From NCBI GenBank assembly GCA_029261035.1, contig JAJDCD010000010.1, positions 14,612 through 78,611 of the forward strand: 64,000 bases of DNA, given 5' to 3'. Below, piece by piece: positions 4,274 through 64,000 of this stretch. The notes under the pieces are model-generated. The model was not told the DNA's origin. It did not search any database and saw nothing but the letters and a program-made list of their open reading frames with translations. Made by a program: the position numbers and the translations under genes. This DNA is from Candidatus Omnitrophota bacterium (GTDB lineage: Bacteria; Omnitrophota; Omnitrophia; Omnitrophales; JACROU01). Every line of letters begins with the position of its first letter. Position 1 is the stretch's first letter.

Positions 4274-5319
4274 TTATGCGGCTTGTGCGACCTGTCTTGC
4301 TGCTAGTTCTTGTGATAACAGCTTATCAAGTAACTGTCGTACAGAAGCAACGTTGAAGAAGAACCGGTCTTCTTCACGGGCTAATCCGCGAGATACAAGC
4401 TCGTTAGCTACCGCTTCACCATAGCGTGCAATTTCACGGCCTGTTCGGAGAACCACAGGTTTAACCCAATCATAGCGGTCCAGAGCCTGTTTATCGTAAA
4501 CCACGTGGTAAACTCCTTTAGCACCTGTTACTCGATCACTTAAGTCGGTTTCTTCATTTGAAACAACTGTCATTGCTTTATTTGTATATTCTGGTTGTTG
4601 TCTCAAGTCGGTCACAATTCGGTTCAAGCTTAAACCTTGATCTGTGATCAAGATTACTTGCCCTCTAACACTCTCTGGAATAGAGATAGCTACATCTTCA
4701 GGAACATTAGCTATAACGAGTTGATGATTCTGGGTTCCAGAGAAGTAATTGATAAAGGCATCATCTTCATCTGGTGTTCCAATAAATGGCAAGTAAACTC
4801 CTGTGTTCCAATCTACAACCTGAACCGAAGGTGCTGGGGAAGCTCCAGAACCTACAATCATTTTATCCAAAGCTTCATTAAATCCAGTCGAAACGAGATC
4901 TGCCGCTGCTCGAACATCGCCCAACTGTGTTTGTAATTGTGTTAAAGCAAACTGCCCTTTTAAACCTTGTATAGAATCTAAAGCAGACAACAATGCACTT
5001 TGTTGAGAATCTGTCAAAGGAGCTTTTGCTACAGGAACACCTAAACTCTCAGCTGTAATTTCTGGAACAATTTTTTCTTTAACAGGTTTTTCACCTAAAG
5101 AAGATCCATAAATATCTTTTTCTTTAAGCGTATACAATTGAGCTATGCGTAGTTTATCTGCCTTTGAAACTAAATTATAACGTTTTCTTGGTAAACCAAA
5201 ACGTTGAACTGATTCACTTCTACCTGTCTTCTCAAAAACTTTTTTCAAGTATCCCGATTTGTCTCTTTTAGTAAAATCAGAATCCGTCCATTTTTTGACA
5301 TCAATTCTTCTTTTACTGA
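4274..5319 (-). other. C-terminal globular domain (~348 aa) of unknown function after the last transmembrane cluster
   Basis: This is a non-coiled-coil, mixed-composition segment (VDWNTGVYLPFIGTPDEDDAFINYF ... VYHVVYDKQALDRYDWVKPVV). I recognise no motif in it. Confidence 0.4.
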
Positions 5320-14300: not shown

Positions 14301-17300
14301 TAGAACGCCACTTGATCTCGTGTGAAACGACTACGCTCAATGGCTAACGCTCTCGCATCCGTAAGCGCCGGCGTTGTTTCTGTAGACTCAATCGCTGGCA
14401 ACCCTTGAAACGCCCTATTTTTATTGATCTCTTCTAAAATAGATTGTTTTAATGCAGCAACGGCTGTAGGGTTATTGTCATAACGCTTCATATATTCATC
14501 TGCTAAATCTCTAATACGGTCACTGTTGACCATACGATATCTCAAGAACCCAAGCTTACCATCATCTAAACGCTCTCCACGATACAAAGACATATGAAGC
14601 ACTTGAAAATAACCATCTAAAGCTAACCGTTCCATAAAGTCCGTAAAAGCAACCTCCCCGCGATCATACTGAGCAAGTCGACGAGCTCTTTCTTCAGGAG
14701 AAATATTCAAACCGTCCAACTGATTTACGTAAAGCGTTCTTCGTTCTTGTTTTGCCGTTTCTGATAAATCCATCCCCATCATAAACCGTTGACCAAAGTA
14801 AGTAGCTCGACTGTCATCCATTGGATTTTGAGTTTCTCTCAATATACCAATCATAATACGTTCTTTTTGTATCGCTTCATTCAAAGCAAATAAATGGGAT
14901 CTAAACTCTAAACTACGTCCTTCGGATTCAATCGTTTCTAAGATAATGTTACGCATTGTCTCTACGGATCGCAAACGAGCTTCTCTATCCGTTATTTCTG
15001 CACCCATTCGTCTAGTCACTGCTTGATTCATATTATCGATACGCCCCAAGAAACGTTCTAAGGTTACTAATTTTAAACGTCGTCCAATTTGACCTTGACC
15101 AAAAATAACACTCGTAAGCGCTTGTTTTACCTGAGCTCCCAATTGAACAAACTCCGTTGCTTGAAGGCGCAGCGCTGCTAATTGCTGAGTCTCCACATCC
15201 GTACGAGCAGCCCCTTTACGATCTAAGCGAACAATTTCTCTAATAAAAGCTGTTCTTACTGCTTTAACTTCATCGGAATCCAAAAATGCTGTAATTGCAG
15301 CTTTGGTTGCGGTCTCTTTTTGAGTTGCATTCAAACGATCATTATGATCAATCACAGCAAGACTTCTAAGTAAATGATCTTTCTTTAAATTTAATAGACG
15401 AATAGGCTGTCTCATAGCTCTATCGGAAGTAAATTGAATCTCTAGAGGTTGAGATAATCGTATTGCTGCTTGTATGGGTTGAAATGCTTTATCTTGCCCT
15501 TCGAAATCTAAGTTTCTAAAACCCATCAACGTTTCATGGAAACGGCTTTCGGTAATTCCAAAACTACGCTGTAAACGATCATACTGCTCAATATGAGATT
15601 CTTTTAATTGTGCAATATTTCTAAATGTGGTTCTGATATTACGAGGCAAATCTACTTCCACCATCTGAGTTAAACGGTTCTCAGCATCCGTAATTTCTGC
15701 TGTCAAACGTGCAATCACAGCTTGGTCTGTATTTGGCTTATCATTTTCAGCTTTCATTTCACGTTTTTTCACTTCAACCAATAAAGCCTGATCGCGAATC
15801 GTTCTCAAGAAATCACGAATCCAAGATGCTGCTTCTCCTTGCGCCACATCCAGAAAACGCCATTCTTCCACTGCAATACGAGAAACAAGGTGACGTGTCC
15901 TCATTAACCGATTCACTTCTTCTTTAGCCGCATTGTAATCTGAAAAACTAATACCATCTTTAGTATATAACTGAGAAACTTTACCCAAAATGTCTCTCAT
16001 ACGATAATCTCGAGCAAATGTTGTTGCATGTCCTTCAAAGTATCTGTTTAAAACATCTTGTGGTAATTGCAACCCTAACTGCGTTAATGTTTGATTAATG
16101 ATCACTCGTTTCGCATCTCGATCTCGATCTAATTCACGACGGAAATCTTGAGTATCCGTATCCACTTTTACATATTGATTCATTAAATCATTATCTGTGA
16201 TATAAAGTGCCATTCGGATATAATTTTCTAAGTCGCTCAATTGAACTTTTCCATCACTTACTTCTTTCATCATACCAAAAGCAAGAGAATCAACAATAGA
16301 GCTTCGGTATTCCAAATTAAATGCGCGACGATAATCATCCATAACCGTATCCACATTAATCATACCTTCAGCCCCCAACTGTCTTAAATCCCTTTCTAAC
16401 GAAAGTCTCTTTACAGGGCCTGCAAAATTATTCCACTCATTGTCTCGAGCAGCAATAAGAGCAGTAGCAACCGCAGCACCTTCAGCATCAAAAGCTCGAT
16501 TAATACTTTGTTTCACTTGGAAAAACCGCGTAACTGCCGCGCCAAGTTTAGAAACATCTGTCGTTAATTTACCATCGTCCTGAGCTTGAAGGAAAGCTCG
16601 GGTGAGACTTGAGATGGCACTTTCATAAAAAATCTTTCCGTATTCTGTAGAAAGTTTTGTATTTAAAGCTGAACTCATCTGAGTTAAATCCCTTAACCAT
16701 GCATTTCTTTGCGCAAGTGTAATCGAACCTTCCCGATGGAGTTGAATCAAACGTCTTTGTTTAAATAAATTAAGTTCATTGTTAAAACGAGCTTGATTGT
16801 CCAGAATATAACGATCCATTGGAATGTTAGCTTTAAAATGCCTTAAGATAGCCATTCTCATTTGAAGATGTCGTCTAAAATCAGTTCTCAACTGTTCCGG
16901 ATCAGAACTACGAACACTCGACTCTAAGAAATCTTCAGAAATACTTACGATACGACCCCAGACATCTTCTTCTTGCAACGGACGATACACTTCTGTTCTA
17001 CCATCCACAACACGAGTGGCTCTCGTTAACGTTCCTCCTTGAGGAATAACCCCTAATAATATAAAGTACTGCTCTAATTCTCCTTTTACATTACCGGTGT
17101 AACTATCATCAATAAGAAAACGGATTTGCTCTGCTCTGTGTCTGGATTTGACTAACCCAGCAACAATACGGTCAAAAGTGTATGAGGTTAAGAATCCACT
17201 ATGATTCGGATTTCCAATATAATCAAAAGTGAATGTAGCATCATTAGGGTCTGCTAGATTACGTAAACGGAATAACCTTTCAGCATCTGCTTTATTGTTT

Positions 17301-26300: not shown

Positions 26301-29300
26301 CTTGCTTCTTGCAAGAAAATATCATTCATGATGTTATAAATTTCAAACTGACGATTAATTTGTTCTAATGTTCGTGATGGCGCTTCAAGAATGTCTACAC
26401 CCGCTGCACGCCCTCTTTCAACTTCACTTTCTTGCATCTGAGTTTGAAATCGAACAGCACGATCTTCCGCAACACCTGTTTGAGGAGAATGACCATCTAA
26501 AACGCGGCCACTCGCATGTCTCATATGTAAATAAAGATAAGCTTCATTGGCTTTACCAAATCCATTTGGAGACAACGTTCTTTCATTCAAAATCAAAGAT
26601 GGCATCAATCCTTCAAACAAACTTCCACCCCATGAAGGAACATAATGAATTGTGCGGTTTTCACCATTAACACGAATTGTTCTCTGGTAAAGTCCATTTT
26701 GTGGTGTTTGAGCTTGACCCGTCGTAGCAGGTTGTGTTCTTGGTGTATTTGTCCAAACATCTGCGGGAACCCCTCGACCCATTGCAACAATCAAATGAGG
26801 TCTAATTTCAGTATAAATCAAACCATAATGTGTTGGATTACCAAACTGGTCTGCTAATGGAGCATAATTACGTGTTGTTGCGTTGTAATCTAAACCGGTA
26901 TACATCTGCTTTCGAGTTGCATCATAAAGTTGTGTGAAATTCATTGCCTCATACAGTCTATTAGCAGAACCTTGAATTCGAGTGTCCGTTGCAAAAGCCT
27001 GTTTTACAACAATCAAACCAGAAGCCAACCAACCATTGTCTACCGTAGAAATTTTACGATCTGAGGTTTGTCCATTAGCAACTGTAATACCATCATGAAA
27101 CAATCCATTCACTTTATTCATTGCTGTAAGTGTACGAAGCACTTTATTAACTCTAGACTTCGCTTCTGCTTCTGTAATAATTCCTAGTTCTTTGGCAGAA
27201 ACAATACTCATCAAATACAAACCAATATTCGTTGGTTTTGTATACGAAGCTCGAGTAGTTCCATCACTCGCCAAAGAATCTGCAGGCAATCCTGTTGTAG
27301 GATCCACAACCGCTTCGAAAAATGCCCACGTTCTTGTTGCAATCTCTCTCAATAACGTTTGATCCGCTGGGGTCAATGTTTGATTTGTATTTAAACCCTG
27401 TGGCGTACTTAATCCAGAAAATGTGGTGTTCATCAAACGTAAGTGAGGCTGAATCGATGCATCCGTTTGAAAATGGTTTTGAACTGCACCATTTCTAACC
27501 GCATTCGCAATCGAGATCATAATCATACCTTGATCTAAACTCAACATCGTTTGGTCGACAGAACCTGTTTCTAAATGGACCGCATCATAAAACCCTTTAG
27601 GACCATAAACAAGAGATTGATCTCTTGCGTCCTTTAAAGCAGCTAATCGTCTAATGTTGGCCATGGCTTCTTGAGGCGCTGTTGACAAAGCTAAGAAAGT
27701 GGCGTGTGGCGTTATCACAGGCTGGTCACTGGTATAACCTCCTGAAGGCTGTGATCCTAGAGGAGCACCAAATTCAGAATAACGTCCTGAAGTACGTGGA
27801 TCGCGAGAAACTGAAAGTCCCCAAGCAGTAAAGTCCCCTGGTAGCTTGTTTGGCGCAGCCACATTCGCACCCGTTCTATAAACTTCAACTAAACGTGTAG
27901 CTCTTCTTTGAATATCCGTAATGTTAGGGTTCGGAACCAATCCACGATATAGAGCAACAATATCTGAAACTTTCTTTGTGTCCACATCAGTGCTTGCAAG
28001 TATGGTACGAACTCTTCTAATCGTATCCAAACTTTGTACCTGAGTTGGAGACCAAAAGTTGTTCTGAGAAGCGACTCGAACCACCCCCTGAATAGATGTT
28101 GTCAAATCAGGGTAAATAGCTGTGATAACTTCGTTCAGTTTTTGATTACTAATTTCATCACCACTCGTACCGGCGGCAGTAACTGCTTTTGCTCGAAAAG
28201 CAACTCTAATAGCATCTGCACCTGAAACTTCAGAAGGAATTAAACCCACTAGAGCATTGACTAAAGTTGCACTATCCTTCTTATGAAAATTTAAATAATT
28301 TCTAAGAGATGTTCTCATAGCCGCATTCAATGGTGCTCCGGCATGAATTTGACGCGCAAGCAAACGTCTCATATCTTCTAAATTAGCTCTTTTATATTCA
28401 TATAATGTCCACTGAAGAGCTAAATTAGTCCTCCACTCATCATTACCCCATAAATAATTAAATAACGCTCCTGAATTACCACCCATCGCACGCATTGCAG
28501 AAGGCATTCCTCTATAGTAAATTTCAACGAATTTCTGTACGAAAGCTTGATTTTCACTTAAAGCAATCAATTGGTCTTTTACATTTTGAGACAATGTTGC
28601 TCTATTGCGTCTAATATATTCTTCAACCGCTTCAATCAACTTACGTCTTAATTGAGCAACAGTTCTTTCTTGTCCTCTTCGATTTAACTCGCCTTGATGT
28701 CTGTCTAGATTATCTGTCAGACGACCTAACTCGACTAATTCACGATTAACCGTCGTTAAATCTCCTTCAATTCGCGTAGCGCCTACCTGTAAACCGCTAA
28801 TCTCTCCTCCTTTTTCTCGAGACAATTGGTCTAAAGAACCTCTCATAGAATCCAAACCGCCCTCCCCTTGCGCTGTGGTAATAGACTCTACTAATAAAGA
28901 AATAATCTCACGCTGTACTTCTGGGCTACGTCCTTCTAAAGTACGAAGGATTCTTTCTATATCTGCTTGAGTCAACGGAGTTTCTGGAGAAGCCGTATTT
29001 ACTGCTGCTTGGAAAGTGCGGGCTCTCTGCTGGATTTCTGCACGTTGATCCACTTGATATTTTTGATTTAGATACTCCCCACCAAAAACCATTCCAAAAA
29101 CCAAAGTAAGAATCAGTATGATTTTACCGAAGCTCTTCATGCCTTTGGCTTTATTAATGGAAAGCATAAAACTGATAGAATCCCAAACCCTATAAAAACT
29201 CCAAAGAGCAAAAGAACCTATTCTTCCGATACCGCTAATTGGTTTACCAATGGCTAAAAGTAGACCTCCTACGACAGAACCCACAATCAGAGGAACTGAA

Positions 29301-32300
29301 GAAGGTAAAACACTTGCAGAAGAACCTAAAGCTTGCATCACAGTGCCTACCGCTAACGTTTCAGGGAAAAGTGCTGCAGCACTGAGCAAACCAAAACCTA
29401 TAATCAAAGCACCCGCAACAATTCGAACTCCCGTAACAGGTTTCTTAAACATCCAATTCGTCCACTTCGTTGCTGCCACTTTGCTTTGAACATACATCGA
29501 AGCTTCGTAGTACACAGAATTTGTTTTAGCAAGCAAAGGAATCATCATACTAACAGAAGGCTTAATCACAAAAACAATCAATGCCGTTGCCCCATAAACA
29601 GCACCCATCACAAAAAAGACACTAGGCAAGAATCCCGTAGGGACAGTAATTCCTACAATAGGAATAACCCATGAAGGAGTTGCTCCTGTTATAACTGCAG
29701 TAGCAGCGGTAGCAACCCGAAGCATCGCACCAAAAAAGAGACTCGCTAAAAGAGGAGCAAAAATAAGGTTAGGAGTACGTTCAAACATTCCCAAGATAGA
29801 GCGCAACGGCCTCAGAGAAGCTCCTCTTTCTAAAGAGGCTTTAACTTCAACTTCTAGTTGCAGAACGTCCACTTTATTTTTAGCTACAAGATCAATGCCG
29901 CGAGGATCTCTACTACCTGAGTAAGAAGAGGCCACTTCATTTTGTAGTCTTTTCACTTTATCAAAAGCAGCAATCAATTCTGCTCGAATGGCTTTTTGTT
30001 CTTCATGTCTATGCTCATGAATAGCTGTTGCTGTTCGGTTGTATTTTTGCAAATGATATCGAGTAGTATTAATTGCTTCACTCAATTGATATTGAGTAAG
30101 TTGTAAGAGTTCTTCTTTGACAGAGGCTAAATCAGCTTCATAAGCTACAACTTCCGTATTTACTTCCTGATAATAATCATCAACTTTCACCTTTAGAGTG
30201 CCTGTTCTAGAACTAAAAGCTCCTAGTCGAGCTTCTGCATTTAAAATTTGCTCTTCAAAAGGGTAGTCTACATAATCTCTTTTTACTGGAGGACCTCTAG
30301 CACTCAGCTCCGTAGATATTTCTTGAACACTGACCAGATGTTCTTTAACAACTGCAATACGATTTCTAAATCGTTTCATTTTGTTCTCATACTCAACAAC
30401 GGCATGGTTTTGTTTAAGACGATCTTCTTCAAGCTGTCTTTTGTCGCTTGCCATACCCGCTCTTAAACCAGAATAGTCAAATTCCGCTACGTTAAGAGTA
30501 GATAGCCTTTCCGTTTTCGTACCTATTGTTTCTTCAAGGTTCTCGTGACGCCCTCTCATAATACCTGTGTATTCATTCAACACAGAATCTTCCAACAAAC
30601 TATAAAAACCCAGCAATGCCTGTTTCGCATATTCTGTCTCTGCTTCTGCCCCTGTTTTTATTTGATTAATACGTGCTATATCGGAATCACTAATTTCTAG
30701 GTTATTGTCTTCTTTTTGCTGCCTCAAACGCTCCGCTGTCACATAAATCGTATCCCAATATTCCCTTAAGTCTCCCTGCACTATTTTGAGCAAATTCACC
30801 AAAGCGTTCGCTCGAACAAGAGCATCATCTTCACGATTAACAATTTCTCGCACCGTCTCAACCCAACGATCTAAATGTAATGCCTTCATATTTTTCAAAG
30901 CCGTATCTGCTGCTGCAATCATCGCCGCCACTTGAGGCTCTGTTAAGGGTTGACCTGGATCCACAGGGATCATTGGTGGCGCCGCTGCTTCAGGAAGCAT
31001 AGGTAATTCATCTGACTCTTCACCCATTTGTTTCTTAGCACGATTCATCGCAAAGAAAGCCCATTCATAATACCCTTTGGCATCTTCCATTGCTCTCTCA
31101 GCTTCTTCTTTTTCCAAATTGGCTTGATCCCATTGCTGAAGAATCTCTTCTATTACCAAAGAATCTTCTGCTTTGCTATCAACATTCAGAAGAGCCGTAT
31201 TAAGCTCCTCAAATTTTCGCTCAACACCGACAAAAGCTCGTGCAAGGTCATTAGAATCTTGACTTAAACCTTCTAATCTTGTTTTATAACTTGCTTCATT
31301 CCCATCAAAATCGGTTTCTTCATCCAAATCTTTAACAAAATCCTGAACTTTCTTTTCAAACGTTTCAACACGAGAACGAAATGTAGAAGTTTCTTTCAAA
31401 GAGGCTTCATCTTTCCTCAAAGCATCCAAATCGGATTGAACTGTATTTATTTCGTTCTCCAACGCCTCGAGCTTCCCATTATAATCTGCAATAAACGCAT
31501 TTAACTCATTAATACGCTTATTGGTTGCTTCCATAAATTCTCTAATCTGCGTTTCTAATTGTCTTAAATTTAACTGCTCTTCAGAACCATTAACTGTTAC
31601 TGTTATCGTACTACTCTTTGTAGCTAATATTACTTTTTGAATAAGCTCAATACTTTTAGCAGCTCTCGTTAAAGGTTCTTTAGAAGTAAATGCTAATGTT
31701 TTTACTCTAGCAACCCACTGTTTCGCTCTAAGAACACTATCTTGATCCTTTACTTCGTTAAAATCAAACAGTTCATCAAATTCGTAATCCTTAGCATTAG
31801 GCAGACCAAAAGCACTTCCCAACTCTTCTTTAGCTTGTAAAAATGCCTCATCAACCGCTTCTCGATCCTCTTCAAATTGACTTGGAACATTCTCTAACAA
31901 AATTGAAAACTGTTCTTGTTGCATCTTTTCAATTTGAGCAATTTGCTGTCTCTTCTCATTAATAAAATGTTTTATCTGTAATTCAAACTCAAAGTAGCTT
32001 CCAGTGTAATCTGATTCTTTTAAATACATCGTATTTGCAAACTTCTCTATTAGCTTTACAAGCCTTTTAAACATAACTTTGTAATCAGCATCACCCGACT
32101 CCACTAACGTATTATCTTTAAATCCTAACAAAAGTTGCCCGGGCTTCGTAGAACTCGTTTTGAATACTTTTTCAAGCTCTTCCACATTTTCGCCTAATAA
32201 GCTTTCTGCCTGAGCCAAGACTTCTAAAATCTGTTTAGGGTCAGAGTTAGCATCAATTTCCAAAGCAAATAAATCCCCCAAAATATCCAAAAGTACCGTA

Positions 32301-52870: not shown

Positions 52871-53261
52871 AAACTAGGTCGACCTTACCTCGTTAATTTT
52901 ATTTTTTGCTGCTTAAGAAAATTTAAGTATTGTTCGATAATATTAAGTTCTATCGAGTTATTTCCAAAAAAACACTTCCTTTTAAACAATTACGTTTAAA
53001 AACAAATAAATTTTTCTAAATACGCCCTTTTCATTTAATCTTTTAAAAAAGTTTTTCTTAATTCATGCAACTCTTTCGAAAACAAAATGAAAATTTATAC
53101 TACATTCTTTTTTGTAAAACAACAGTCGGCAATACTTACTTATTTCTCTTAAAGGAATTATAACATACTTTTTTTAACTTTGTAAAAACTGGAGTAAATA
53201 TATCGGAATTTCTAGCAATACCTTTAATATCCCTTAAAAATAAGCCAAATAAGCTAAATTA

Positions 53262-53301
53262 TTGTGGATAAATAACTTACATCCACCTCCTTGTGGATAA
53301 A
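53262..53301 (-). promoter_or_regulatory. two perfect DnaA-box 9-mers (TTATCCACA on the minus strand) as a 12-bp direct repeat ttgtggataaat, 29 bp apart
   Basis: tgtggataa at 53263..53271 and 53292..53300 are reverse complements of the consensus TTATCCACA. They sit in the AT-rich 695-bp region about 400 bp upstream of the giant gene start. Confidence 0.5.
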
Positions 53302-53365
53302 TCAACTCAAATAACCCTAACCTATTTCCCTATATAAACTTAAAGCACCCCCATTCGGGCACGGG

Positions 53366-53393
53366 CCCTATTTAGGCCCGGGCCTAAATAGGG
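53366..53393. promoter_or_regulatory. 28-bp perfect palindrome ccctatttaggcccgggcctaaataggg in the spacer between the giant genes
   Basis: The reverse complement is identical. It is centred on the aggcccgggcct core that also occurs at 400..411, 430..441 and 53464..53475. It is preceded by gggcacgggccc. Candidate operator or structured RNA. Confidence 0.5.
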
Positions 53394-53536
53394 CTGTAAT
53401 CAATAAACTTTTGAAATTAAAAGAGTTAAAAAATCCCACCTTCCAACCCGGAAACCCTCAAACAGGCCCGGGCCTAAAAAACGTGTCACAATGATACATT
53501 TAGTTATTTGAGATAAGCTTATTTTGAGGTGCTTTT

Positions 53537-53559
53537 GGGACAGTCCCTTAGACTGTCCC
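53537..53559. repeat. gggacagt / cccttag / actgtccc hairpin, third member of the gggacagtccc family
   Basis: 8-bp stem with 7-nt loop. It starts 6 nt after the stop codon of the 3,472-aa gene. No U-tract follows on the coding strand. Confidence 0.7.
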
Positions 53560-53565
53560 TTTAGA

Positions 53566-56500
53566 CTATGCTGCGATTTGGACGGCTTGTTTGGCTCTGA
53601 GGCGCTCTAGGAGGTATTCTGCTAGAGCTACGATTGAGTTGTAATCCATGACGACATATCCTTCTGAGACTTGCATATCGACTGGGTATTGCTGTGCGAA
53701 GCTCTTGATGGAGCTCAACCCCCCATTACGAGAGACGAAACGACCTGCTTCGAGCATGAATTTGTGAACTAATTGTCTATTAGCTTGGCTCATACGAGGC
53801 TCATTCTCACCGTTATATAAGAGTGTAACAACCTTTGGTGATATCTCCTCTTTACTGACATAGATAATATTAGATGGTTTAGCTCCATCCTCTACCAAAC
53901 CAGCAACGGTCTGAGTCACATCTTTCTCAGATTCTAACTGAACGGCGGCTCTTAACGTTTCTGCTTGAGGTTCGAACAATTGTCCCAACTCGGTATTGGC
54001 AAACTGCGCCATTGCTTGTTCTTTAACTTCAGGAGAAACATGAAGAATATGAACCGTGTCGGTATCTGGAGAAATTCGATCTAGAAGAACCCCAATGTCA
54101 GTTACCGAACTAGCATAGTCCGAATCGACCACAACCACGCCTTGAATATCCAATCCTGGTATTTGTCTTGCGTTAACCGCATCTACGCTTCTGCCAGTTT
54201 CAATATTTTTCATTTCATTTAAGAGTGCTGCCAGAGAAGCAAGATTCAACGTTTCTAATTGAGTTTGAGCTTGGTTATAAGCAATCCACGGAGATTGAAC
54301 ATGGCCACCCAAACGTTGAATCGATCGTTGAAGATCAGCAACATTTTCTGCAACTAAACCACGAACCGCAAAGAGTGCTGAAGCATTTTCAAAATTATTC
54401 GCAGGAATCTCTTCTGCCAATTCTTTAACGACTTCTTTTTCTCTATTGCTAAAGATTGGATCTAATCCACTTGCTCGACGACGAATATCAATTGCTTTCA
54501 TCACTCGATATTGAGATTGATACGCAAACGATTCATCCAAAGCAATTTGGCGGAACACATCTAAGTTTTGAGAAAGCTCCTTAAATGAAACGTTATCGAT
54601 ATTATCAATATGAGTTGCTTCATGAACTAAGGTTGCAACCAATTCTGCAAAAGCACGGTCGCGGGCTACACCTTCTAGGTCTCTAATTTGTTGAATACGT
54701 GTTTCACTCACAACAATCGTTCGATCTGAAAGTCGTGCATAAGCCACAATACCTCCTTGGAACAAACTGTCATCCAAAGGATTGCCAACAACAATACGAT
54801 TTACTTTCTCAATTGCTGTTTTAAAGCGGCTATCTAACTGAATCCCTAATCCCAAAGCTTCCCCTAAAACCTCCAAGTATTCTGGAACCACTTGAAGACG
54901 GTCTGCTTGAGCTGCACCTAAGCTTTGCGCAGAAACCATAGAGATAGAATCTAATAAAGAGGACTCTTTAGATTCAAATAGGACTTGTTGTCCTAAGCTA
55001 TCCGCTTCTGCTTCATACTCTTCTGCTTGTCCTCTATAAATAGAAGCCTGAGCATCCCATTCGGTTCGTTCTATTTCATCTTCTGCAAATTCATCTCGAA
55101 GGCGTTCATATGTTTCTGCTAGAACTGTATAAATTTTAGAACGCAACACGTCGATTTCATCATCCTGAAATCCAGGAATAAAATCTAAAGCTGCTTCGAT
55201 AAGCTTGCTAGCCTCTTCATAATCTTCAACACCTTCAACGATTGTTTCTTTTTGATTTTGAGCAACCAAAGCAGCTGCTCCTGACTGTATTTGTTTAGCC
55301 GCATCCACATACCACGCAACTACGGTATTCACATCTGGTTTTTTAACTTCTTTGAGCCAAAATTTCAAACCTTCTTCAAATCGATTTTGAGCCGATTGAA
55401 TTTCGTCAACAGCATCTTCCCAATCTCCATTTTTAGCATGCATATTCGCATCCGTTATATGCTGTACCATTGCATCCGCAGTCTGTGTGGCCATATTCAC
55501 AATTTCTTCAACAGCTTCCGGTGTCACCTCTTCATTCACCCACTGAGCTTTAGTAAAACCTACCTGTGCTGCTTGTGTCATTTTTTGAATTTGCTCTTCA
55601 TTACCACCCGCTCTTTCTAACATCAATGTCTTTACTGTTTCATTTCTGGCAATATCGACAAAGTAGCGGGACAATGCTGGTGGCAAGACTCCTTTTCTAT
55701 CAAAATGGATCGCTTGTTCGTAATCAGCATCTACCCTCTTAGCAATCTCTTTTGTTTTTGTCGCAGTGATAGACAATTCAATTCTGGCTAAATACATCTC
55801 TTTAATCGAATCTGCCAATTCTGATTGGTTCAATTCTGGGTCTAACTCCTGAGCCTCTTCCAAAACTTCCATATGTTTGTTTAATTCCTCAAGAGAAACA
55901 TTATCCGATTGGATCATTTGGTTAAAACTATTCACAGCTGTTTGTGCTAATTCCAGTGCCACAAACTGATCTAAAGAACCAGGAAGAGCTTCTTTAGAAT
56001 CAAATGCTTTAGCTTGACTGTAATAATCTTGAGCTTGTTTCTCAATCCTATTTCTTTTCATCATACGAATTCGATTCGTTTGATTTTTTTGATTTCTAGC
56101 TTTCATCGCCAAAGCACTAAACCAATCACGAATAAATGCTGAGGACTCTCCTTCACTTAAGTTAGAATTAATTTTTGTAGCCTCTTCGATTTGTTCATTA
56201 ATTCCGTCAACAATAGAACCCTCTGAGCCAGCAATCAAATCTCGTATACTCATTTGATCTACTTGCATATCAATAAATTGATCTGCCATTGCTCCCAATT
56301 GGGCAAATCTAGGATCACTCTTCATCTTATCTTTCTCAGGCTGCCTTAATTTTTGATCCAATTTCTGAATCATAGTATCAGCAAACGATGGGTCAATTGT
56401 TTGGATACGACTGTAAGCATCTTGTGCTAAAGTTTCGTTTCCTTGTTTAGAAGCCATTCGAGCTAAAGTTAAGTTCACTTGAACCCATTCTGTTTGAATA

Positions 56501-59500
56501 TCTTCTTTTTGAGATTCATCCAAACGAACCGCTTCTTCAAATAAGCTGTGCGCTTTTTGATAAGTCTCAATTGATTCATTCTGTTTCTTTTTCTGAGACT
56601 GTAATTCTTGCGCTGTAAGCACGAGAGCTCTAGCTTCTTCAATATTTCTCAATGCAATTAAAGCTTCCATGGTTTCAGGCACCTGCACACGATTCGCAGC
56701 TTCCGCTTGTTGCTTCCAATCATTAAACAAGTCTCTCGCTGCAGCTTCATCTACTTGGTATTGCTGTTTAATTTGATCTTCTAATCGTTGAAGATTACGT
56801 TTTGTTTCCAAACGGGCTTCTAAAAGCTCTGGAGAGAAATCTTGTCCCGGCCATCCAGCTACCGTAACGGTATCCCGAACCAAATCAGCAATCACCGTAA
56901 AACCAAAACGATCAAAAATATCTCGAACTGCTTTTTGGTCTTCATCCGTGCGAAGCGCTTTTGCAATTAAGCTTTCACCCTTGGTTACAACCGACGGATC
57001 ATTATCAATTGTGTTTTGACTGACATAAGCCAACAACTCTTCCACAACCTGTTTTTCGGTGTAGCCGGACTGGATCAATTGCTTCTTCGCTTCCTCATAT
57101 CCATTCAACTCTTTCACTAACTCATCAATTTCAGTTCTTTCTTCTTCCGTTAAATTTGTAAAGTAATGCGCATGATTCAATTCGTGAACAATATTTTTAC
57201 GAGCCATCTTTAATTTATTCATCATGCCCTTGTTCTCATTTACGTTCATCTCATCACTCAATGCATCTGAGAATGAAATAAATCCATAACCATCATTCGC
57301 AGCAAAAAGATCCATTACCATTTTTGAACCATCGATAATTTTTTCAGCTACAATTTCTTTTGCTTTTTGAATCGATTGATCATAAGTTAAAGACGTATCT
57401 TTAACACGTTCAATAGTCGCAATTTTTTGAAGCATTTCTTTCAGCTTAGCATCCTTATCTTCATTCAATCGAGAGGCTAATTCTTGAATGGTTACATTAG
57501 ATGCTAAATCACGATAGCCGAAACGTCCTTCATCTCCATCGAGCTCTCTCTTGTTCACAAAGAATCCTAGAGCCGCTTCCACACCAAATTCCCATTGGTC
57601 GCCTATATATAACTGTGTATAGACCAATTTTTCATACATTTCTGGTTGAGCTTCTCTATCGATACGAACAGAACTCTTCAAGAAATTACCTAAGCTTTGT
57701 TTGAGGCCTCCTGTAAATAAAGAATCCCCTGTACTGCCTGCTTCTTGCATTTCTGCAAGGTAGAACAACTGAGCTCGACGCAATACTTTAGCTTGAACAT
57801 TTCCTTGAGCATCACTTACGAAATAATAATAATCTCCACCTTTCGCAATGCGTTCTCTCCAAAAACTAGGTTCCTCTTCCGTTGCCGCTGTTTTAGCTTC
57901 AAAGAAATCTTTTTCTTGTTGTGTTAATTCAGAAAGATTCACTTCCTGAATTCCTCCGAGAGAACCTCTTAATTCCGTCATTACGAGCATACGATGAATA
58001 TCCGCTTCATTCACTGTTTCTTTAAACTGCTCTACCAACTCAGCCTCATCCAATATCTCTCCAGGCTTCCGCGTCGCTTGCTGTTGTATATAAGCTTCTC
58101 TTCTTTGTTGCGTACGCGCTTCGCTGGCCAATACGTTAATAGAATTAGCCGTTTTTTCATTAAATTGAGTTCGGTATCGATTAAAAGATTGAACTATGGT
58201 TACCACTTCATCCAATATCTCATCTCGTAACGTTCTTGGTTTGGACTGAATTCGGTTAATCAATTGTCCGAGCCAATCAAAACCTCTAAGAGAGTTCACC
58301 GCAGCTTCAATTAAGTCATCACTTCTTTCCAAATCAAGACCTAGTTCATTCGCTTTTGCACGAACCAATTTTACATTCACATCAAAAGCCGCTGGGTTTT
58401 CTTCGATCACAACCGCAGCATTTTCTGCGTCTTTAAGAATCTGCAACTTCTCTTGCTTCTCTTCAACACCTTCTAATGCAGCCATAATCTCAAAGAGTCT
58501 CAACTGTCTTGATGTTGCTTCTCCACGACGAATTTTTTCTCTAATTTCTTGAGAAGTTTCTATAAATTCATCGTTGTTGATCAAGCGAATTAAATTTCCA
58601 AGTTCTGCTGCTGTAATTGGATTTTCTCGAACTCGACTTTGAAGCAGCTGATCAAAAATAGCCGTCTTAGCGCTCATCAAACTACTCGCCCGATCCACAA
58701 AATGGAATTGGTAATATTCTTCATCCAAAAGTTTATTGATAAGTTTATGGACTGAATTCATATCCATGTCCCCACCAAAATTTCTTTTATTCACAATTTC
58801 AAAGGCAATAGCACCGGCATTGTTACGAGCCACCCCTTGTTTTCCAGCTTTAGAACGAGTGTAATGGGCAAAGGTTTCTTTCCAGTCAATCCACTCATCC
58901 TTACCCATTGCTTTGAGTTTCAGTTTAAGATTTCGAATGTAAGTTTTATCAAACCCAAAACCCAACAAGACACGGTTGCGTTTCACAAACTGAATAGCCG
59001 TATCCAATATTTGATAATCTGTGGATTTAATTTCTTGAATCAGTGTTTTTACTTCATCTGTTGCTCCCGAAAGAAAACGTCGATCATAAGCAGCTTTTAA
59101 ATTTTGAATCTGGCTCTGAAGCACCGCCTTTTTAGCAGCATCTGCTTCTGATTGTAAACGCGCTTCTTTTTTCAAGATCGTCATCCAATCTAAAATCATC
59201 GCTTCTTCTAGGGTATCGTTTTCTGCGATACGTTTTCCAACAACGACACGATCCGAATCCTTAGCATCTTTTTCTAACTTGCCTAATGCATCAAATAACG
59301 TTAAATCTTGTCCTGGTCGAGAGTGACCCAAAACTTCTTCCGCAATATCCCCTTCCATTGAAGAAACGAGTACTTCGTTTACAAAATCTTCTCCAAATGC
59401 TTTTTTGAGATAAGCCAAACGTTCTAAGTAGTGAGAAAACACACGAACCTTTCTCTTACGTCCTTCTCCGGTAATACTACTCGTATCCCGACCTTCCCCT

Positions 59501-62500
59501 ACCTTCGTGGCTACTAAGAGCAATTCGAATTGAGAAACAATTCCTTTTCTCTCTAAGACATCTAAGAAGTTTTCATTAATCTCTTTGTCATAATCCGCAT
59601 CCTTAAGCTGTAACAACGAGTTTAATCCATCCATCACATCCGTAATACGACTGGATTCAAATTGAGAACGATATTGTCTTAAACCTTGAAAGGCATATCC
59701 TTCATTAAAAGCTAAAAGAATAGCTTCTTGAATTTTTATTAAATTCATCTTATCTTTCTTGCTAAGATCTCCAGATGCTTTTCTAACTTGCTGCTTTTCA
59801 CCATCAACCTCAATTTCTTTCATCAATAATTCTGTTAATGCCTTACGCATACTTCGTTCATCTCTAACAGAAATATTTAAGTTAATCGCTTTTGCGTTTG
59901 CTTCTTCCGTATACTGAGTATTAATACGACGATATTTATCCCAAATAAATTTAAGGTCAGGATCTCCCAATAATACCTGTTGATTATGCTTTCCTTTTTC
60001 GGAACCATCAAAAGCAAAGATTAAGTTGTCATCTGTACTGCTCGTGGCTTGTAATTTTGACTGCAATTTCCCACCTGTTAATTCACGTGTTAAAGCTAAT
60101 TCCTTATCCAATATAGCTAAATACTTCGGATCTAAATCAATGGCATCATCAAAAAAGATACGCGCTTGTTTTAAATCAAATTCTGCAGAATCCGGAACCG
60201 CACGGTACTTACCAAGGTAAAGCAATCCTTGCAATGCTTTAAGTTGAGCCATGAAGGTTCGATTTAAACCCTTAAGTTCTTTCTCTGTTTCTAAAAGCTT
60301 AATCGCTGTAACCAAACGCTGCGTTGCTTTCTCGTAAGTTAAATACGCTTCTTTCCTTAAATTTAGAGACTCTTCTTCGTTGTCCGTTAACTCAGCAGAG
60401 TCTAATAAATATTCTGCTTTTGCTTTCATGACGTCGACACGGCGTTTCATTTCTAAAACTCCGGCTGTCAAACGTTCTTGTTTGAGATCTCGACCCCTCA
60501 CAAGAGCTTCTTGATGAAGCTGCTGAAGAATATTGTTTAGTGTCACACTCTCTCCAGAAACAAGCTCAATACCCACACGGTTAGCCATCTGAGTAAAAAC
60601 GCTATAATCGTTTAACAAAATAGCGTCCATCACGTCAAGAAAACGTACTTGAGTCTGAAGTCCAAAAACCTGGATCAAAGCTTCAATTTCTTTATAACGT
60701 TGGTATAGTTTTTCTTTCTCTTCTTTTCGTGTTTCATCTAAATTAAATAAATCATTAATTTTCCGAACTCGTTCACTCTCACGCGGACTGAGATCAGAAG
60801 ATTTCGAGCCCGAAAGATTTAACACTGCTGTAATCAATCCATCAACCGTATCTAAGAAGTTTTCTTCCATCATACCCTGAACCTTAGACACCGTTGCATC
60901 AACATCATTCGATAGCTGATCTAACACAATCGCTTGATTAATTTTCAATTCTTTATACTCAGTAGCCCCCTCAAGTTCTAATCCTTGCATCCATTCTTCA
61001 AAACTTTCAAGACGATTTAACTGTTCTTGATCAAGTCGTGAATCAATCAATCCATATATGTTGATATTTAAAGCATCCAAGTCAAAACCCTGATTATTGA
61101 GTCGTTTTTTCATTTCTTCTACAAAACGGATACTCAACAATTGATGTTTTGGATACTTTTTAGCAAAGTATGTTTCTAAGTATTTATCTAAGGTATGTTC
61201 TTGTTCTCTAACACCCATTTGCTTTAACTTCGCTTTATACTCTTCATTAATCCACTTATGCAGTTGGAATACAGCAGCACTGCGTTGATCTACACGAGCT
61301 AAAGTTCGAATAAAACTATTCTTAGCCTGATCTTTTTTGTTTTTATTCTTCACTGCTGTGACATAAGCAGGGAGTTCTAACTCTATTTTCTTCTGAGTCG
61401 TGTCAATACGAGATCGCCCCTCATCCTGTAACGTTAATATAATTTCTTTTGTTCTTAGATTAGCCACATCCACACCATAACCACTCTGAGGCGTACCAGA
61501 AACCAGAGTAACCAGATATTCCAAACCATCAATCGTTACTTTTTCGCCATCTTTTATTTTATTCCCTTCAAACGTAAGGTCACCCTCAGCATTAATATCA
61601 AACTCCACAGTTTCTTTGACAGGGTTTGGTGTGTTTACTTCCACTTTTCTCTTTTCATTCACAACGACGTCTGTAGCTGTAACTACTTCTGTCTTTAAGA
61701 GAACGTTTCCTGTTTCCTTATCCAATTCAAATCTCATTTTCTGACCGGCAATGGTGACATCCGTACCTTCAGCAAGACGACGAGCCATATAAGTCATAGG
61801 ATTAATCAAGGTCGTCGCTCCACTTAACACAGCTCCAAGACCTGCTCCAAAACGAGTAGTGTTCTTCCACTTTTTCCATATTTGTTTTGCTGATGCCGTA
61901 GCTTCACCAATCACAGAACCTTCTCTTAAACCAAAGATGGCAGGGCGATACAAATACCCACCCTCTTTTTTGTCTTGTTTCACTGTAATTTTAGGTGTTT
62001 TATCTGCTTTTTCTGTAGAACGTCTAGCGGCAATCAATAATTTCGCATGCAGCTCATTTAGCGCTTTTTGATTTGGTTTTCCTTGAAGATAAGCAGCAAC
62101 CGCATCCATCAAGGCAATACGTGTTGGAGCATCTTCAATTTTTTGTAAGGATGACTTCAAGGTTCTGAGCACTTCATTTTCGCTCACAACACCTAAACGA
62201 TAGATAAAAGAAGCGGAGTCACTTCGAGTCAGCGATTTATCAAAAACGGTATCCTCCGTCCAAGATTCTAGATAAGCAAACGAAATTGGAATGAACGAAA
62301 GCATACGGTTTACTATCAATCGAGGCCATTTTGTCAAACTCTTCCATAGAGAGCTATCCCCTTCGGCCATTCTCCAAAGAGCTTCTAAACGACCTTCTGC
62401 ATTTTGAGTTTGTAATTCATACTCACGAAGCAAATTATTTCTCTTCAAATAAGTATGGAATTGTTGCCAACCAGCCAATACCTTCAGCTTTGCTGTACCA

Positions 62501-63984
62501 GAAACAAGTCCTGCATCCAAAGTTTCTTTAAAACGTTTACGATCATCCGAAGTGGGTACTGCTTGCAACAACAAACTACTTAAAGCTAAGTTGTATCTAT
62601 TTTTCTCACCACTCGAAAGTGCAGGTGCATTCAAACGAATATTATCAATCACTCCGTCTACATCTTTAAACTTAAGACGAGTAGGATCATTCCACCATTG
62701 TTTTGCTTTTAAGAGAGGCGACGCTAAGAGTTGGCTTATTTTCTTTGTTCCTCGATTAAAACGTGTAAGCACAACGCTTTCTTCTTGGTAGTCTCTAAAT
62801 TGTTTTGTTAATTTTTGACGACCCGGTTTTTTCCATATATTTGGTACAACGTTAAAACCAAAGCTTAATATCCAACGAGCGGGCGTTAAAATAAAAGCCC
62901 CTGTTTTCCAAACCCCATTCACTATTTTCTGGCCCATAAAACGAAGTAAACGCTTTTCTTCTCGAGCTTGCCGTAGAGCATCCACAGCATTTCTCGCTAA
63001 TTTGCTCAATACATGCCAAGTGCTGTACGGAATAAAACTTGCTGTTAAAATAAATCCCTTAGCACCCCATCTCCAAATACGGTCTTCAATAATATCGCCA
63101 AAAGAATCTCTTCCCAAACGAGGTATCTTTGCATACTTCGATTCTAGATTGAGATAATCATTTAATTTTTGATTCCAAGCAGTTAATCCAAGAGTTTCTC
63201 CCCACACTTCCTTAAAACTCTGCCAATCGGTAATACGGCCTTTAGTTTTTAGTTTCAATAATTGTCGATCTAACTTATCGATTTTATCTTTATTGTTCAT
63301 GGCTTGATAACGAGCTTTTTCTAATGCATCAAAGGCATTAAATTTTCTTTCAAGAAGAGCTCTTGTTTCTGTTTGGTACACAGGCATATTCTGATACAAC
63401 GCTCTTGCGATTTGAGCGTTGGAGTCTTCATGATGAAGTGCAAAGTTAATTTCTGCAGAATTTAAACGAACCTTAAGGTCGTCCACATTCAATTGATTTA
63501 CAGCACGCAATGATTCTCCAACGGTAATAAGCTTAGCTAAAATCTTAAGGTCATCCCCTTCTTTCTTTTCATCCATATCCTGAGTAGAAATAATCCCACT
63601 TGAAATGAGCGCAAAGACAAGTTGAACAACATCTTGATCATCTGGAGCACCAGGAGCACCCTGATATTGATAATCAGAACCAGCGGATTGAAGTAATAAG
63701 TTCAAGGCTTCTTGAACCTCTTGACTGTGAGCATCTTTCTTATCAAAGACACGACGCACTTCTTTTATAAGCTCAACGACACGCACACCATCTTGAACGA
63801 GGTCTGCTTTGTCCAAACCACGGTTATAATCTACAAGACCTAAGTTTCTTAACTCGGTATCGATCGTGGCCTTAGCTTCTTGAGTAAAACCATCCTTCGC
63901 ATTTAACTGATCCAATGTTTGCTGCATTTGCGCACGAGCTTCTGGGTTTGCTCCCATCAAGGAAACTTCCGGAAGGTCATTCAT
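53566..63984 (-). CDS. 3,472-aa giant protein with no signal peptide and two zincin-like HExxH motifs
   Basis: This is an uninterrupted 10,419-nt ORF. The start MNDLPEVSLMGANPE is at 63982..63984 and the stop TAG at 53566..53568. Motif 1 is NIVHELNHAHYF (HELNH at 57172..57186). Motif 2 is ATLVHEATHIDN (HEATH at 54610..54624). Both are preceded by hydrophobic residues and followed by Glu-rich helices. The protein is mostly alpha-helical or coiled-coil in character. Confidence 0.85.
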   Translation of the reverse strand: MNDLPEVSLMGANPEARAQMQQTLDQLNAKDGFTQEAKATIDTELRNLGLVDYNRGLDKADLVQDGVRVVELIKEVRRVFDKKDAHSQEVQEALNLLLQSAGSDYQYQGAPGAPDDQDVVQLVFALISSGIISTQDMDEKKEGDDLKILAKLITVGESLRAVNQLNVDDLKVRLNSAEINFALHHEDSNAQIARALYQNMPVYQTETRALLERKFNAFDALEKARYQAMNNKDKIDKLDRQLLKLKTKGRITDWQSFKEVWGETLGLTAWNQKLNDYLNLESKYAKIPRLGRDSFGDIIEDRIWRWGAKGFILTASFIPYSTWHVLSKLARNAVDALRQAREEKRLLRFMGQKIVNGVWKTGAFILTPARWILSFGFNVVPNIWKKPGRQKLTKQFRDYQEESVVLTRFNRGTKKISQLLASPLLKAKQWWNDPTRLKFKDVDGVIDNIRLNAPALSSGEKNRYNLALSSLLLQAVPTSDDRKRFKETLDAGLVSGTAKLKVLAGWQQFHTYLKRNNLLREYELQTQNAEGRLEALWRMAEGDSSLWKSLTKWPRLIVNRMLSFIPISFAYLESWTEDTVFDKSLTRSDSASFIYRLGVVSENEVLRTLKSSLQKIEDAPTRIALMDAVAAYLQGKPNQKALNELHAKLLIAARRSTEKADKTPKITVKQDKKEGGYLYRPAIFGLREGSVIGEATASAKQIWKKWKNTTRFGAGLGAVLSGATTLINPMTYMARRLAEGTDVTIAGQKMRFELDKETGNVLLKTEVVTATDVVVNEKRKVEVNTPNPVKETVEFDINAEGDLTFEGNKIKDGEKVTIDGLEYLVTLVSGTPQSGYGVDVANLRTKEIILTLQDEGRSRIDTTQKKIELELPAYVTAVKNKNKKDQAKNSFIRTLARVDQRSAAVFQLHKWINEEYKAKLKQMGVREQEHTLDKYLETYFAKKYPKHQLLSIRFVEEMKKRLNNQGFDLDALNINIYGLIDSRLDQEQLNRLESFEEWMQGLELEGATEYKELKINQAIVLDQLSNDVDATVSKVQGMMEENFLDTVDGLITAVLNLSGSKSSDLSPRESERVRKINDLFNLDETRKEEKEKLYQRYKEIEALIQVFGLQTQVRFLDVMDAILLNDYSVFTQMANRVGIELVSGESVTLNNILQQLHQEALVRGRDLKQERLTAGVLEMKRRVDVMKAKAEYLLDSAELTDNEEESLNLRKEAYLTYEKATQRLVTAIKLLETEKELKGLNRTFMAQLKALQGLLYLGKYRAVPDSAEFDLKQARIFFDDAIDLDPKYLAILDKELALTRELTGGKLQSKLQATSSTDDNLIFAFDGSEKGKHNQQVLLGDPDLKFIWDKYRRINTQYTEEANAKAINLNISVRDERSMRKALTELLMKEIEVDGEKQQVRKASGDLSKKDKMNLIKIQEAILLAFNEGYAFQGLRQYRSQFESSRITDVMDGLNSLLQLKDADYDKEINENFLDVLERKGIVSQFELLLVATKVGEGRDTSSITGEGRKRKVRVFSHYLERLAYLKKAFGEDFVNEVLVSSMEGDIAEEVLGHSRPGQDLTLFDALGKLEKDAKDSDRVVVGKRIAENDTLEEAMILDWMTILKKEARLQSEADAAKKAVLQSQIQNLKAAYDRRFLSGATDEVKTLIQEIKSTDYQILDTAIQFVKRNRVLLGFGFDKTYIRNLKLKLKAMGKDEWIDWKETFAHYTRSKAGKQGVARNNAGAIAFEIVNKRNFGGDMDMNSVHKLINKLLDEEYYQFHFVDRASSLMSAKTAIFDQLLQSRVRENPITAAELGNLIRLINNDEFIETSQEIREKIRRGEATSRQLRLFEIMAALEGVEEKQEKLQILKDAENAAVVIEENPAAFDVNVKLVRAKANELGLDLERSDDLIEAAVNSLRGFDWLGQLINRIQSKPRTLRDEILDEVVTIVQSFNRYRTQFNEKTANSINVLASEARTQQRREAYIQQQATRKPGEILDEAELVEQFKETVNEADIHRMLVMTELRGSLGGIQEVNLSELTQQEKDFFEAKTAATEEEPSFWRERIAKGGDYYYFVSDAQGNVQAKVLRRAQLFYLAEMQEAGSTGDSLFTGGLKQSLGNFLKSSVRIDREAQPEMYEKLVYTQLYIGDQWEFGVEAALGFFVNKRELDGDEGRFGYRDLASNVTIQELASRLNEDKDAKLKEMLQKIATIERVKDTSLTYDQSIQKAKEIVAEKIIDGSKMVMDLFAANDGYGFISFSDALSDEMNVNENKGMMNKLKMARKNIVHELNHAHYFTNLTEEERTEIDELVKELNGYEEAKKQLIQSGYTEKQVVEELLAYVSQNTIDNDPSVVTKGESLIAKALRTDEDQKAVRDIFDRFGFTVIADLVRDTVTVAGWPGQDFSPELLEARLETKRNLQRLEDQIKQQYQVDEAAARDLFNDWKQQAEAANRVQVPETMEALIALRNIEEARALVLTAQELQSQKKKQNESIETYQKAHSLFEEAVRLDESQKEDIQTEWVQVNLTLARMASKQGNETLAQDAYSRIQTIDPSFADTMIQKLDQKLRQPEKDKMKSDPRFAQLGAMADQFIDMQVDQMSIRDLIAGSEGSIVDGINEQIEEATKINSNLSEGESSAFIRDWFSALAMKARNQKNQTNRIRMMKRNRIEKQAQDYYSQAKAFDSKEALPGSLDQFVALELAQTAVNSFNQMIQSDNVSLEELNKHMEVLEEAQELDPELNQSELADSIKEMYLARIELSITATKTKEIAKRVDADYEQAIHFDRKGVLPPALSRYFVDIARNETVKTLMLERAGGNEEQIQKMTQAAQVGFTKAQWVNEEVTPEAVEEIVNMATQTADAMVQHITDANMHAKNGDWEDAVDEIQSAQNRFEEGLKFWLKEVKKPDVNTVVAWYVDAAKQIQSGAAALVAQNQKETIVEGVEDYEEASKLIEAALDFIPGFQDDEIDVLRSKIYTVLAETYERLRDEFAEDEIERTEWDAQASIYRGQAEEYEAEADSLGQQVLFESKESSLLDSISMVSAQSLGAAQADRLQVVPEYLEVLGEALGLGIQLDSRFKTAIEKVNRIVVGNPLDDSLFQGGIVAYARLSDRTIVVSETRIQQIRDLEGVARDRAFAELVATLVHEATHIDNIDNVSFKELSQNLDVFRQIALDESFAYQSQYRVMKAIDIRRRASGLDPIFSNREKEVVKELAEEIPANNFENASALFAVRGLVAENVADLQRSIQRLGGHVQSPWIAYNQAQTQLETLNLASLAALLNEMKNIETGRSVDAVNARQIPGLDIQGVVVVDSDYASSVTDIGVLLDRISPDTDTVHILHVSPEVKEQAMAQFANTELGQLFEPQAETLRAAVQLESEKDVTQTVAGLVEDGAKPSNIIYVSKEEISPKVVTLLYNGENEPRMSQANRQLVHKFMLEAGRFVSRNGGLSSIKSFAQQYPVDMQVSEGYVVMDYNSIVALAEYLLERLRAKQAVQIAA

Positions 63985-64000
63985 CTCTGTGCGTTGATTT

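Follow-up and report, generated by a model that had tools for sequence, protein, structure and literature searches.

The question raised by this locus is whether a giant protein with scarcely any recognisable domain carries metalloprotease sites of its own. The window, that is the whole stretch of 64,000 nucleotides (nt) of Candidatus Omnitrophota DNA analysed here, contains four large open reading frames (ORFs): a methyltransferase gene, clpB, an ORF of 16,198 codons and one of 3,472 codons, whose product we call p3472. The original prediction, made from the letters of the DNA, had read two HExxH motifs in p3472 as the active sites of a dual metalloprotease. We found that this is plausible for the module near the C-terminus and unproven for the first motif, and that the locus, as far as its sequence goes, suggests previously unannotated metalloprotease-like modules in a giant-gene setting.

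Two HExxH motifs and their conservation

The translation of p3472 contains HELNH (motif 1, in NIVHELNHAHYF) and HEATH (motif 2, in ATLVHEATHIDN) where they had been reported (Table 1). The segments around both are predicted to be globular and to contain beta-strands; that they are not plain coiled coil agrees with the original prediction. There are 31 His residues in the 3,472 amino acids (aa), and the composition of p3472 leads one to expect 0.025 HExxH. The probability of two or more is 3.1e-4 analytically, and two or more were seen in 8 of 20,000 residue shuffles, which makes the pair rarer still than the roughly 1% or less estimated at the outset. The downstream Glu residues put forward as possible third zinc ligands are present at both motifs, each within the short pattern E-x-x-A-Y. 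VEELLAY follows HELNH, with E2315/E2316 44-45 residues past the second His, and LDESFAY follows HEATH, with E3151 26 residues past it.

An exhaustive phmmer search with aa 2100-3299 of p3472 against 1.84 billion cluster representatives gave four matches, three of them real relatives (P0001, P0002 and P0003) and one spurious; the latter, P0004, was set aside as a repeat protein that is not related to the family. P0001 (2,597 aa, partial; NCBI MBI4398657.1) comes from a groundwater metagenome-assembled genome (MAG) of Candidatus Omnitrophota and is named 'class I SAM-dependent methyltransferase' (SAM, S-adenosylmethionine). P0002 has 1,298 aa, and P0003, a 'hypothetical protein' of 4,611 aa, is encoded at locus L003. 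With L002p, a metagenomic protein of at least 5,740 aa (locus L002, 185-17407, plus strand), the family reaches five sequences including p3472, which are singletons in a 15-billion-protein collection. Word-index searches with alignment A3, with the C-terminal 443 aa and with the 125-column core A7 returned nothing, despite the presence of P0001-P0003 in the collection, to which this route is therefore blind, and scans of viral contigs gave no relatives.

The best conserved region of the family is that around motif 1 (aa ~2100-2400), with phmmer E-values of 1.2e-83 for P0001, 2.5e-30 for P0002 and 2.8e-10 for P0003. The motif reads HELNH in p3472 and P0001 and HELSH in P0002 and L002p, so that HExxH is found in four of the five robustly aligned sequences, at 28-58% identity; none of the five departs from H2267 or E2315. 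The expected conservation of motif 1 thus held in these four and failed in P0003, which reads HQLTR; the canonical site must hence be dispensable in at least one lineage.

As for motif 2, the last ~450 residues of p3472 and P0001 can be aligned at 23-27% identity (BLAST E 1.5e-12), and the alignment conserves H-E-x-x-H, A-x-D-E-x-x-A-Y and the tripeptide SLG upstream. The equivalent of motif 2 is HEYRH in P0001, HELAH in P0003 and HERGH in L002p; in both P0003 and L002p it stands 215 residues from the C-terminus and is followed by A-x-D-E. Each of the four proteins that have their C-terminus thereby contains an HExxH within its last 400 aa, where 0.003-0.015 are expected (0.005-0.008 for P0003 and L002p), and a downstream E-x-x-A-[YD] is also kept. 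Six of the seven invariant columns of the four-sequence alignment are H, E, H, A, D and E, among them E3151, the candidate third ligand. Strand-like patterns (IVVGN-P-D, VFVIDMPAD, IIVGNLPDN) precede the motif and are followed by a second I/V-rich strand. A fair statement is that motif 2 is conserved in P0001, the one homologue that aligns clearly, there together with A-x-D-E, and that it recurs at the corresponding place near the C-terminus of two distant relatives, to which the alignment lacks statistical support. In summary, comparison of the available sequences indicates that the HExxH pair of p3472 is conserved and is not a chance occurrence.

Predicted folds around the two sites

Zincin and gluzincin metallopeptidases make up MEROPS clan MA(E) and Pfam clan CL0126. 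Among them, the minigluzincins (selecase, abylysin and the projannalysin-like 3lmc) are soluble gluzincin scaffolds of ~100-110 aa that are related to the M48 and M56 catalytic domains. An AlphaFold2 model of aa 3010-3260, made from two sequences, predicts for motif 2 three strands and a short helix, then the HExxH helix and finally a long helix (3141-3171) that carries D3150-E3151. When this model was compared by Foldseek with 350,542 PDB chains, the top seven matches were all minimal gluzincins, including selecase (4qhf, 4qhj, 4qhi and 4qhg), the zinc peptidase 3lmc and abylysin (4jiu). Their E-values range from 0.25 to 0.52, and the template-modelling scores to the target are 0.23 for 3lmc and 0.38-0.45 for the remaining six; further down the list come anthrax lethal factor, IRAP and deuterolysin. 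A profile match to PDB 3e11, a 'predicted zincin-like metalloprotease', has an E-value of 0.81 and keeps the register from the first strand up to HExxH, and the only Pfam family that appears for motif 2 is Aspzincin_M35 (E 0.23, 12.3 bits vs a cut-off of 30). These are two independent weak signals that agree with the gluzincin reading; NCBIfam returned nothing relevant for the region. We consider it rather likely that the C-terminal module is a very divergent minimal gluzincin.

The C-terminal module resembles the minigluzincins in being small and in its predicted three-strand sheet, HExxH helix and Glu-ligand helix. It differs from them in that it forms part of a chain of at least 3,472 aa, close to the end of that chain, instead of a free protein of ~110 aa, in its Glu motif A-x-D-E-x-x-A-Y and in that no sequence similarity is detectable. 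The structure 3e11, of the Zincin_1/DUF1025-type family, shares with the module the register from V-x-V-x-D/N-x-P via the second strand (I-I-I) to V-H-E-x-x-H; however, the match is not significant, the alignment stops at HExxH, and the family is absent from the Pfam scan.

The motif-1 domain gave a confident AlphaFold2 model from four sequences, with a mean predicted local distance difference test (pLDDT) of 81.7 and a predicted template-modelling score (pTM) of 0.72. Helices make up most of it, along with three short strands, and a strand (2234-2237) comes before the long helix 2248-2277, which carries HELNH (pLDDT 82-86), with E2315 on helix 2310-2326. This order is compatible with a zincin, a compatibility that is no test of the reading. 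The conserved motif 1 belongs to a confidently modelled, family-specific domain that has no known structural relative. It is probably a metal site, and we would put the chance that the domain is a peptidase a little below even.

The nearest functional analogues of the two motifs would be the minigluzincins and the minimal zincins of the Zincin_1 type. Since both motifs fail the significance test, they are not filed here as members of any curated peptidase family; by analogy, our claim is that motif 2 works like a gluzincin and that motif 1 may work like one.

The giant-gene pair and its surroundings

Table 1. Positions in the window of the p3472 features and of the neighbouring genes.
Feature	Position	Strand	Remarks
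p3472 ORF	53566-63984	-	at least 3,472 aa; start ATG at 63984; open upstream to the window edge
Motif-1 domain	56785-57687	-	aa 2100-2400; alpha-rich, three short strands; family-specific
HELNH	57172-57186	-	aa 2267-2271; in predicted helix 2248-2277
VEELLAY	57025-57045	-	aa 2314-2320; E2315 candidate third ligand, predicted helix 2310-2326
SLG before the C-terminal module	54916-54924	-	aa 3021-3023; low-confidence linker; aligned with SLG in P0001
C-terminal HExxH module	54385-54825	-	aa ~3054-3200; predicted strand, strand, strand, helix, HExxH helix, Glu helix
HEATH	54610-54624	-	aa 3121-3125; in predicted helix 3105-3131, pLDDT ~64
ALDESFAY	54520-54543	-	aa 3148-3155; A3148, D3150 and E3151 invariant in alignment A4
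C-terminal alpha/beta domain of p3472	53569-54207	-	terminal helix, end ...QIAA; 25% identity over 208 aa to P0001, E 1e-14
16,198-aa partner ORF	4274-52870	-	downstream of p3472; membrane-anchored; one Glycoamylase/DUF3131 region
clpB	1226-3838	-	full-length ClpB disaggregase; directly downstream of the giant pair, same strand
Class I SAM methyltransferase gene	474-1175	+	separate gene, beyond clpB

The p3472 gene lies two genes upstream of clpB, with the giant ORF between them. From its ATG to the window end at 64000 there are zero in-frame stops, so the ORF may extend upstream, and the 3,472 aa originally given as its length stand as a minimum and not as the full length. Whole p3472 matched no family in Pfam or NCBIfam, and its C-terminal alpha/beta domain has no match in Pfam or the PDB. 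The protein has no signal peptide, no transmembrane or other hydrophobic segment and no Cys. Cys is likewise absent from P0001, P0003, L002p and the second gene product of L003, occurs once in P0002 and, in the 16,198-aa protein, is so rare that its frequency rounds to 0.000. We also considered whether p3472 and the 16,198-aa protein are paralogues or internally repetitive, and whether the two HExxH modules are duplicates of each other. Both ideas were rejected, the former as BLAST was negative, the latter as hhalign covered 24 columns around HExxH at a probability of 2.5%.

The 16,198-aa protein starts with an N-terminal signal or anchor and has transmembrane clusters at aa ~7700-7930, ~13655-13820 and ~15360-15850. 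Pfam finds Glycoamylase (PF10091) and DUF3131 at aa ~8349-8604 (nt 27059-27826) and, as its only other match, a weak OEP at aa ~10900. No C39, S8, SecA-like, dockerin or glycosyltransferase domain was found in either giant. The protein contains a single HExxH, HEHRH at aa 7618-7622 (nt 30005-30019, minus strand), ~80 residues before the first transmembrane cluster; ~0.18 are expected from composition, no homologue covers the region, and the motif may be a chance match.

At locus L003 (60-20702), the P0003 gene is followed by a gene for a protein of 2,168 aa that is similar to an N-terminal part of the 16,198-aa protein (aa 171-535, tblastn 1.3e-9). Behind the signal peptide the N-termini of the two also have a motif in common, which reads VIHIQDAHANYQAQKNI in the window and VILIRDAHAVIEAQSNI at L003. 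Since the second gene of L003 matches the 16,198-aa protein, the pairing of a p3472-like gene with a following p16198-like gene is conserved. In P0001 a methyltransferase domain is fused between the two HExxH modules. Other observations on the relatives are a third HExxH module in L002p at aa 5147, ~380 aa before the C-terminal one (GIIKIALRN...ILHELGHLAV...EGEFEEFW), an M20/M28-like peptidase stretch recognised by eye in P0003 (HMDTV...GADDRG) and, alongside it, a weak GNAT match among the relatives.

Of all 8,000 tripeptides, none is more over-represented in the six pooled giant proteins than SLG, with 31 occurrences vs 11.8 expected (Poisson 2.4e-6, ~0.02 corrected). Further copies in p3472 are found at 54991-54999 and 57688-57696, the partner ORF has 13 sites, and others occur in L001, L002 and L003. 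In each of the pooled giants the final SLG is located 246-458 aa before the C-terminus, within a linker that directly precedes the C-terminal module or domain, and SLG may be a linker or cleavage-site motif. At the C-terminus itself, both giants of the window and the four relatives with a C-terminus share a tail made of an amphipathic helix followed by ...(A/S)A, for example ...RAKQAVQIAA, ...AARQVAQAA, ...QQSA, ...RKSA, ...KSSA and ...VETAA (53569-53630 and 4277-4340 in the window). This tail may act as a common signal for sorting or assembly; outside it, BLAST gave no significant similarity between the C-terminal domains of the two giant families.

The intergenic stretch between the giant genes (52871-53565) has a length of 695 nt. 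A sigma-70-like promoter is matched strongly on its minus strand (53186-53157; TTTACA-18-TATAAT, extended TG), and there are two terminator-like hairpins, at 53362-53345 and 53299-53280. The counts are no higher than the shuffled expectation. An Rfam scan of the whole window gave zero matches.

A possible role in limited proteolysis

From these features we infer zinc binding, peptidase activity, substrates and a role for the modules. The explanation that we favour, with confidence that is evenly balanced, is that p3472 carries a minimal gluzincin near its C-terminus and a metal site, possibly a peptidase, at motif 1, and that they perform limited proteolysis. p3472 would be the smaller, soluble member of a conserved giant-gene pair of the Omnitrophota kind. 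In its C-terminal peptidase module, which would take up ~100-150 aa between an SLG linker and the conserved C-terminal domain, H3121, H3125 and E3151 would hold Zn2+ and E3122 would act as the general base. H2267, E2268 and H2271 together with E2315 would form a metal site and possibly a second peptidase of a new family, of which the P0003 copy would be catalytically dead, because the canonical site has been lost there. The modules would process either p3472 itself or the giant partner, and would not serve bulk degradation. Limited proteolysis is the better guess because the module sits between the SLG linker and the conserved C-terminal domain, because p3472 has no export signal and because it is paired with a membrane-anchored giant, two genes from clpB.

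A comparable arrangement is found in polymorphic toxins and secreted giants, where releasing or pre-toxin metallopeptidase modules are placed before a C-terminal domain. The likeness is one of architecture only, p3472 having a long helical N-terminal part, a small HExxH module and a distinct C-terminal domain. Contrary to those systems, the C-terminal domain of p3472 has no toxin annotation, there is no evident immunity gene, and the next gene encodes the 16,198-aa protein.

Several results weigh against the proposed explanation. The family amounts to five sequences, and the motif-1 and motif-2 modules have no similarity to each other that hhalign detects. The hmmscan for peptidase families around the motifs, which the original prediction had named as a check, gave no significant one in Pfam or NCBIfam, whether with the whole protein, with windows of ~230 aa or with the homologues; the motif-1 domain matched no peptidase family or PDB entry by sequence or profile (Pfam, NCBIfam and PDB), and no significant peptidase-family match was found for motif 2 in Pfam, NCBIfam or a PDB sequence search. 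In P0003 both the catalytic Glu and the second His of motif 1 are replaced. The zincin fold that had been anticipated is suggested for motif 2 by matches of a low-confidence model, whereas the confident model of motif 1 found no Foldseek neighbour in the PDB (best E 1.6) or BFVD (best E 1.3). The motif-2 model, built from two sequences, is poor: its mean pLDDT is 44, reaching 58-71 over aa ~3060-3130 and falling below 50 in the Glu helix. Its Foldseek E-values are not significant, and since Foldseek also scores amino acids, the HExxH helix alone may draw zincins. Lastly, a hidden Markov model (HMM) from p3472 and P0001 did not retrieve the C-terminal modules of P0003 and L002p, and hhalign between the two motif-2 subgroups, with HExxH in register, gave an E-value of 0.36, which is not significant; the conservation of motif 2 in four of four proteins hence rests partly on a motif-anchored alignment.

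Part of this evidence would also fit sites, above all motif 1, that bind metal or are hydrolytic and are not peptidases, be it structural zinc, a cell-wall or glycan metallohydrolase or docking domains. The lack of any zincin among the matches of the confident motif-1 model and the silence of the peptidase HMMs are in line with this alternative, as are the P0003 domain, where HQLTR implies that the fold is of use even when the canonical site is gone, and the carbohydrate-active and methyltransferase domains, not proteases, borne by the neighbouring giant and the relatives. However, the hallmark of gluzincins is precisely an HExxH with a Glu on a helix further downstream, and all the weak structural and profile signals of motif 2 lead to zincin peptidases and to nothing else. 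We regard this alternative as fairly unlikely. A little less probable still is that both modules are true metalloproteases which act as degradative effectors on cell-envelope proteins of prey or host, in line with the degradative system that the original prediction had in mind. Giant Omnitrophota proteins have been linked to predation and cell-wall degradation (bioRxiv 10.1101/2023.11.21.568195), the partner is membrane-anchored and has a glucoamylase-like region, and the proteins are free of Cys, like many exported ones; yet p3472 itself has neither a signal peptide nor a transmembrane segment, its C-terminal module is minimal and lacks accessory domains for substrate binding, and the fixed place of this module between the SLG linker and the C-terminal domain is more like that of a cis-acting maturation module.

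The maturation idea can be taken further, with the HExxH modules as built-in maturases that cut the giants at the SLG linkers in a two-gene system resembling a viral polyprotein, the tail as a common sorting or assembly signal and motif 1 as a new family of metallopeptidase fold; this we consider quite improbable. At the other extreme, both HExxH could be without function, being there by chance or as neutral features in a long helical scaffold protein, in keeping with the lack of any significant database match of any kind, the very few homologues on which conservation is based, the homologue that lacks motif 1 and the distant C-terminal alignments that are not significant. Against this stand the rarity of two motifs in one such protein (~3e-4), the persistence of motif 1 with its invariant H and E in four of the five sequences, the presence of HExxH near all four C-termini and the retained E-x-x-A-[YD] downstream, which together leave chance very little room.

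The reading as modules for limited proteolysis can be set beside what has been described for giant Omnitrophota proteins ('Archaeovorins' and relatives), for which self-processing by C39 or S8 peptidase domains has been proposed and for which it has been asked whether the products act as a single chain or as cut pieces (bioRxiv 10.1101/2023.11.21.568195). The present pair is like them in its giant size, in having scarcely any recognisable domains, in the methyltransferase and glycoside-hydrolase-type domains of the family or the neighbour, in the Omnitrophota MAG that holds P0001 and in the idea of proteolytic maturation. It is unlike them in that p3472 and its partner have none of the C39, S8, SecA-like, dockerin and glycosyltransferase domains and that p3472 has no transmembrane segment. 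The words 'hexxh' and 'zinc' each occur 0 times in that paper, and no description of HExxH modules in giant loci of the Omnitrophota type was found in the searchable literature.

In giant bacterial genes of more than 10,000 codons hardly any domain can be recognised, and in public records the relatives of p3472 bear no other name than 'class I SAM-dependent methyltransferase, partial' or 'hypothetical protein'. With its metalloprotease-like modules, the partner of such a giant would offer a concrete and testable candidate for the processing activity. If motif 1 is catalytic, it would represent a new and extremely rare zincin-like family; if it is not, the pair is still conserved and marks the exact residues to mutate.

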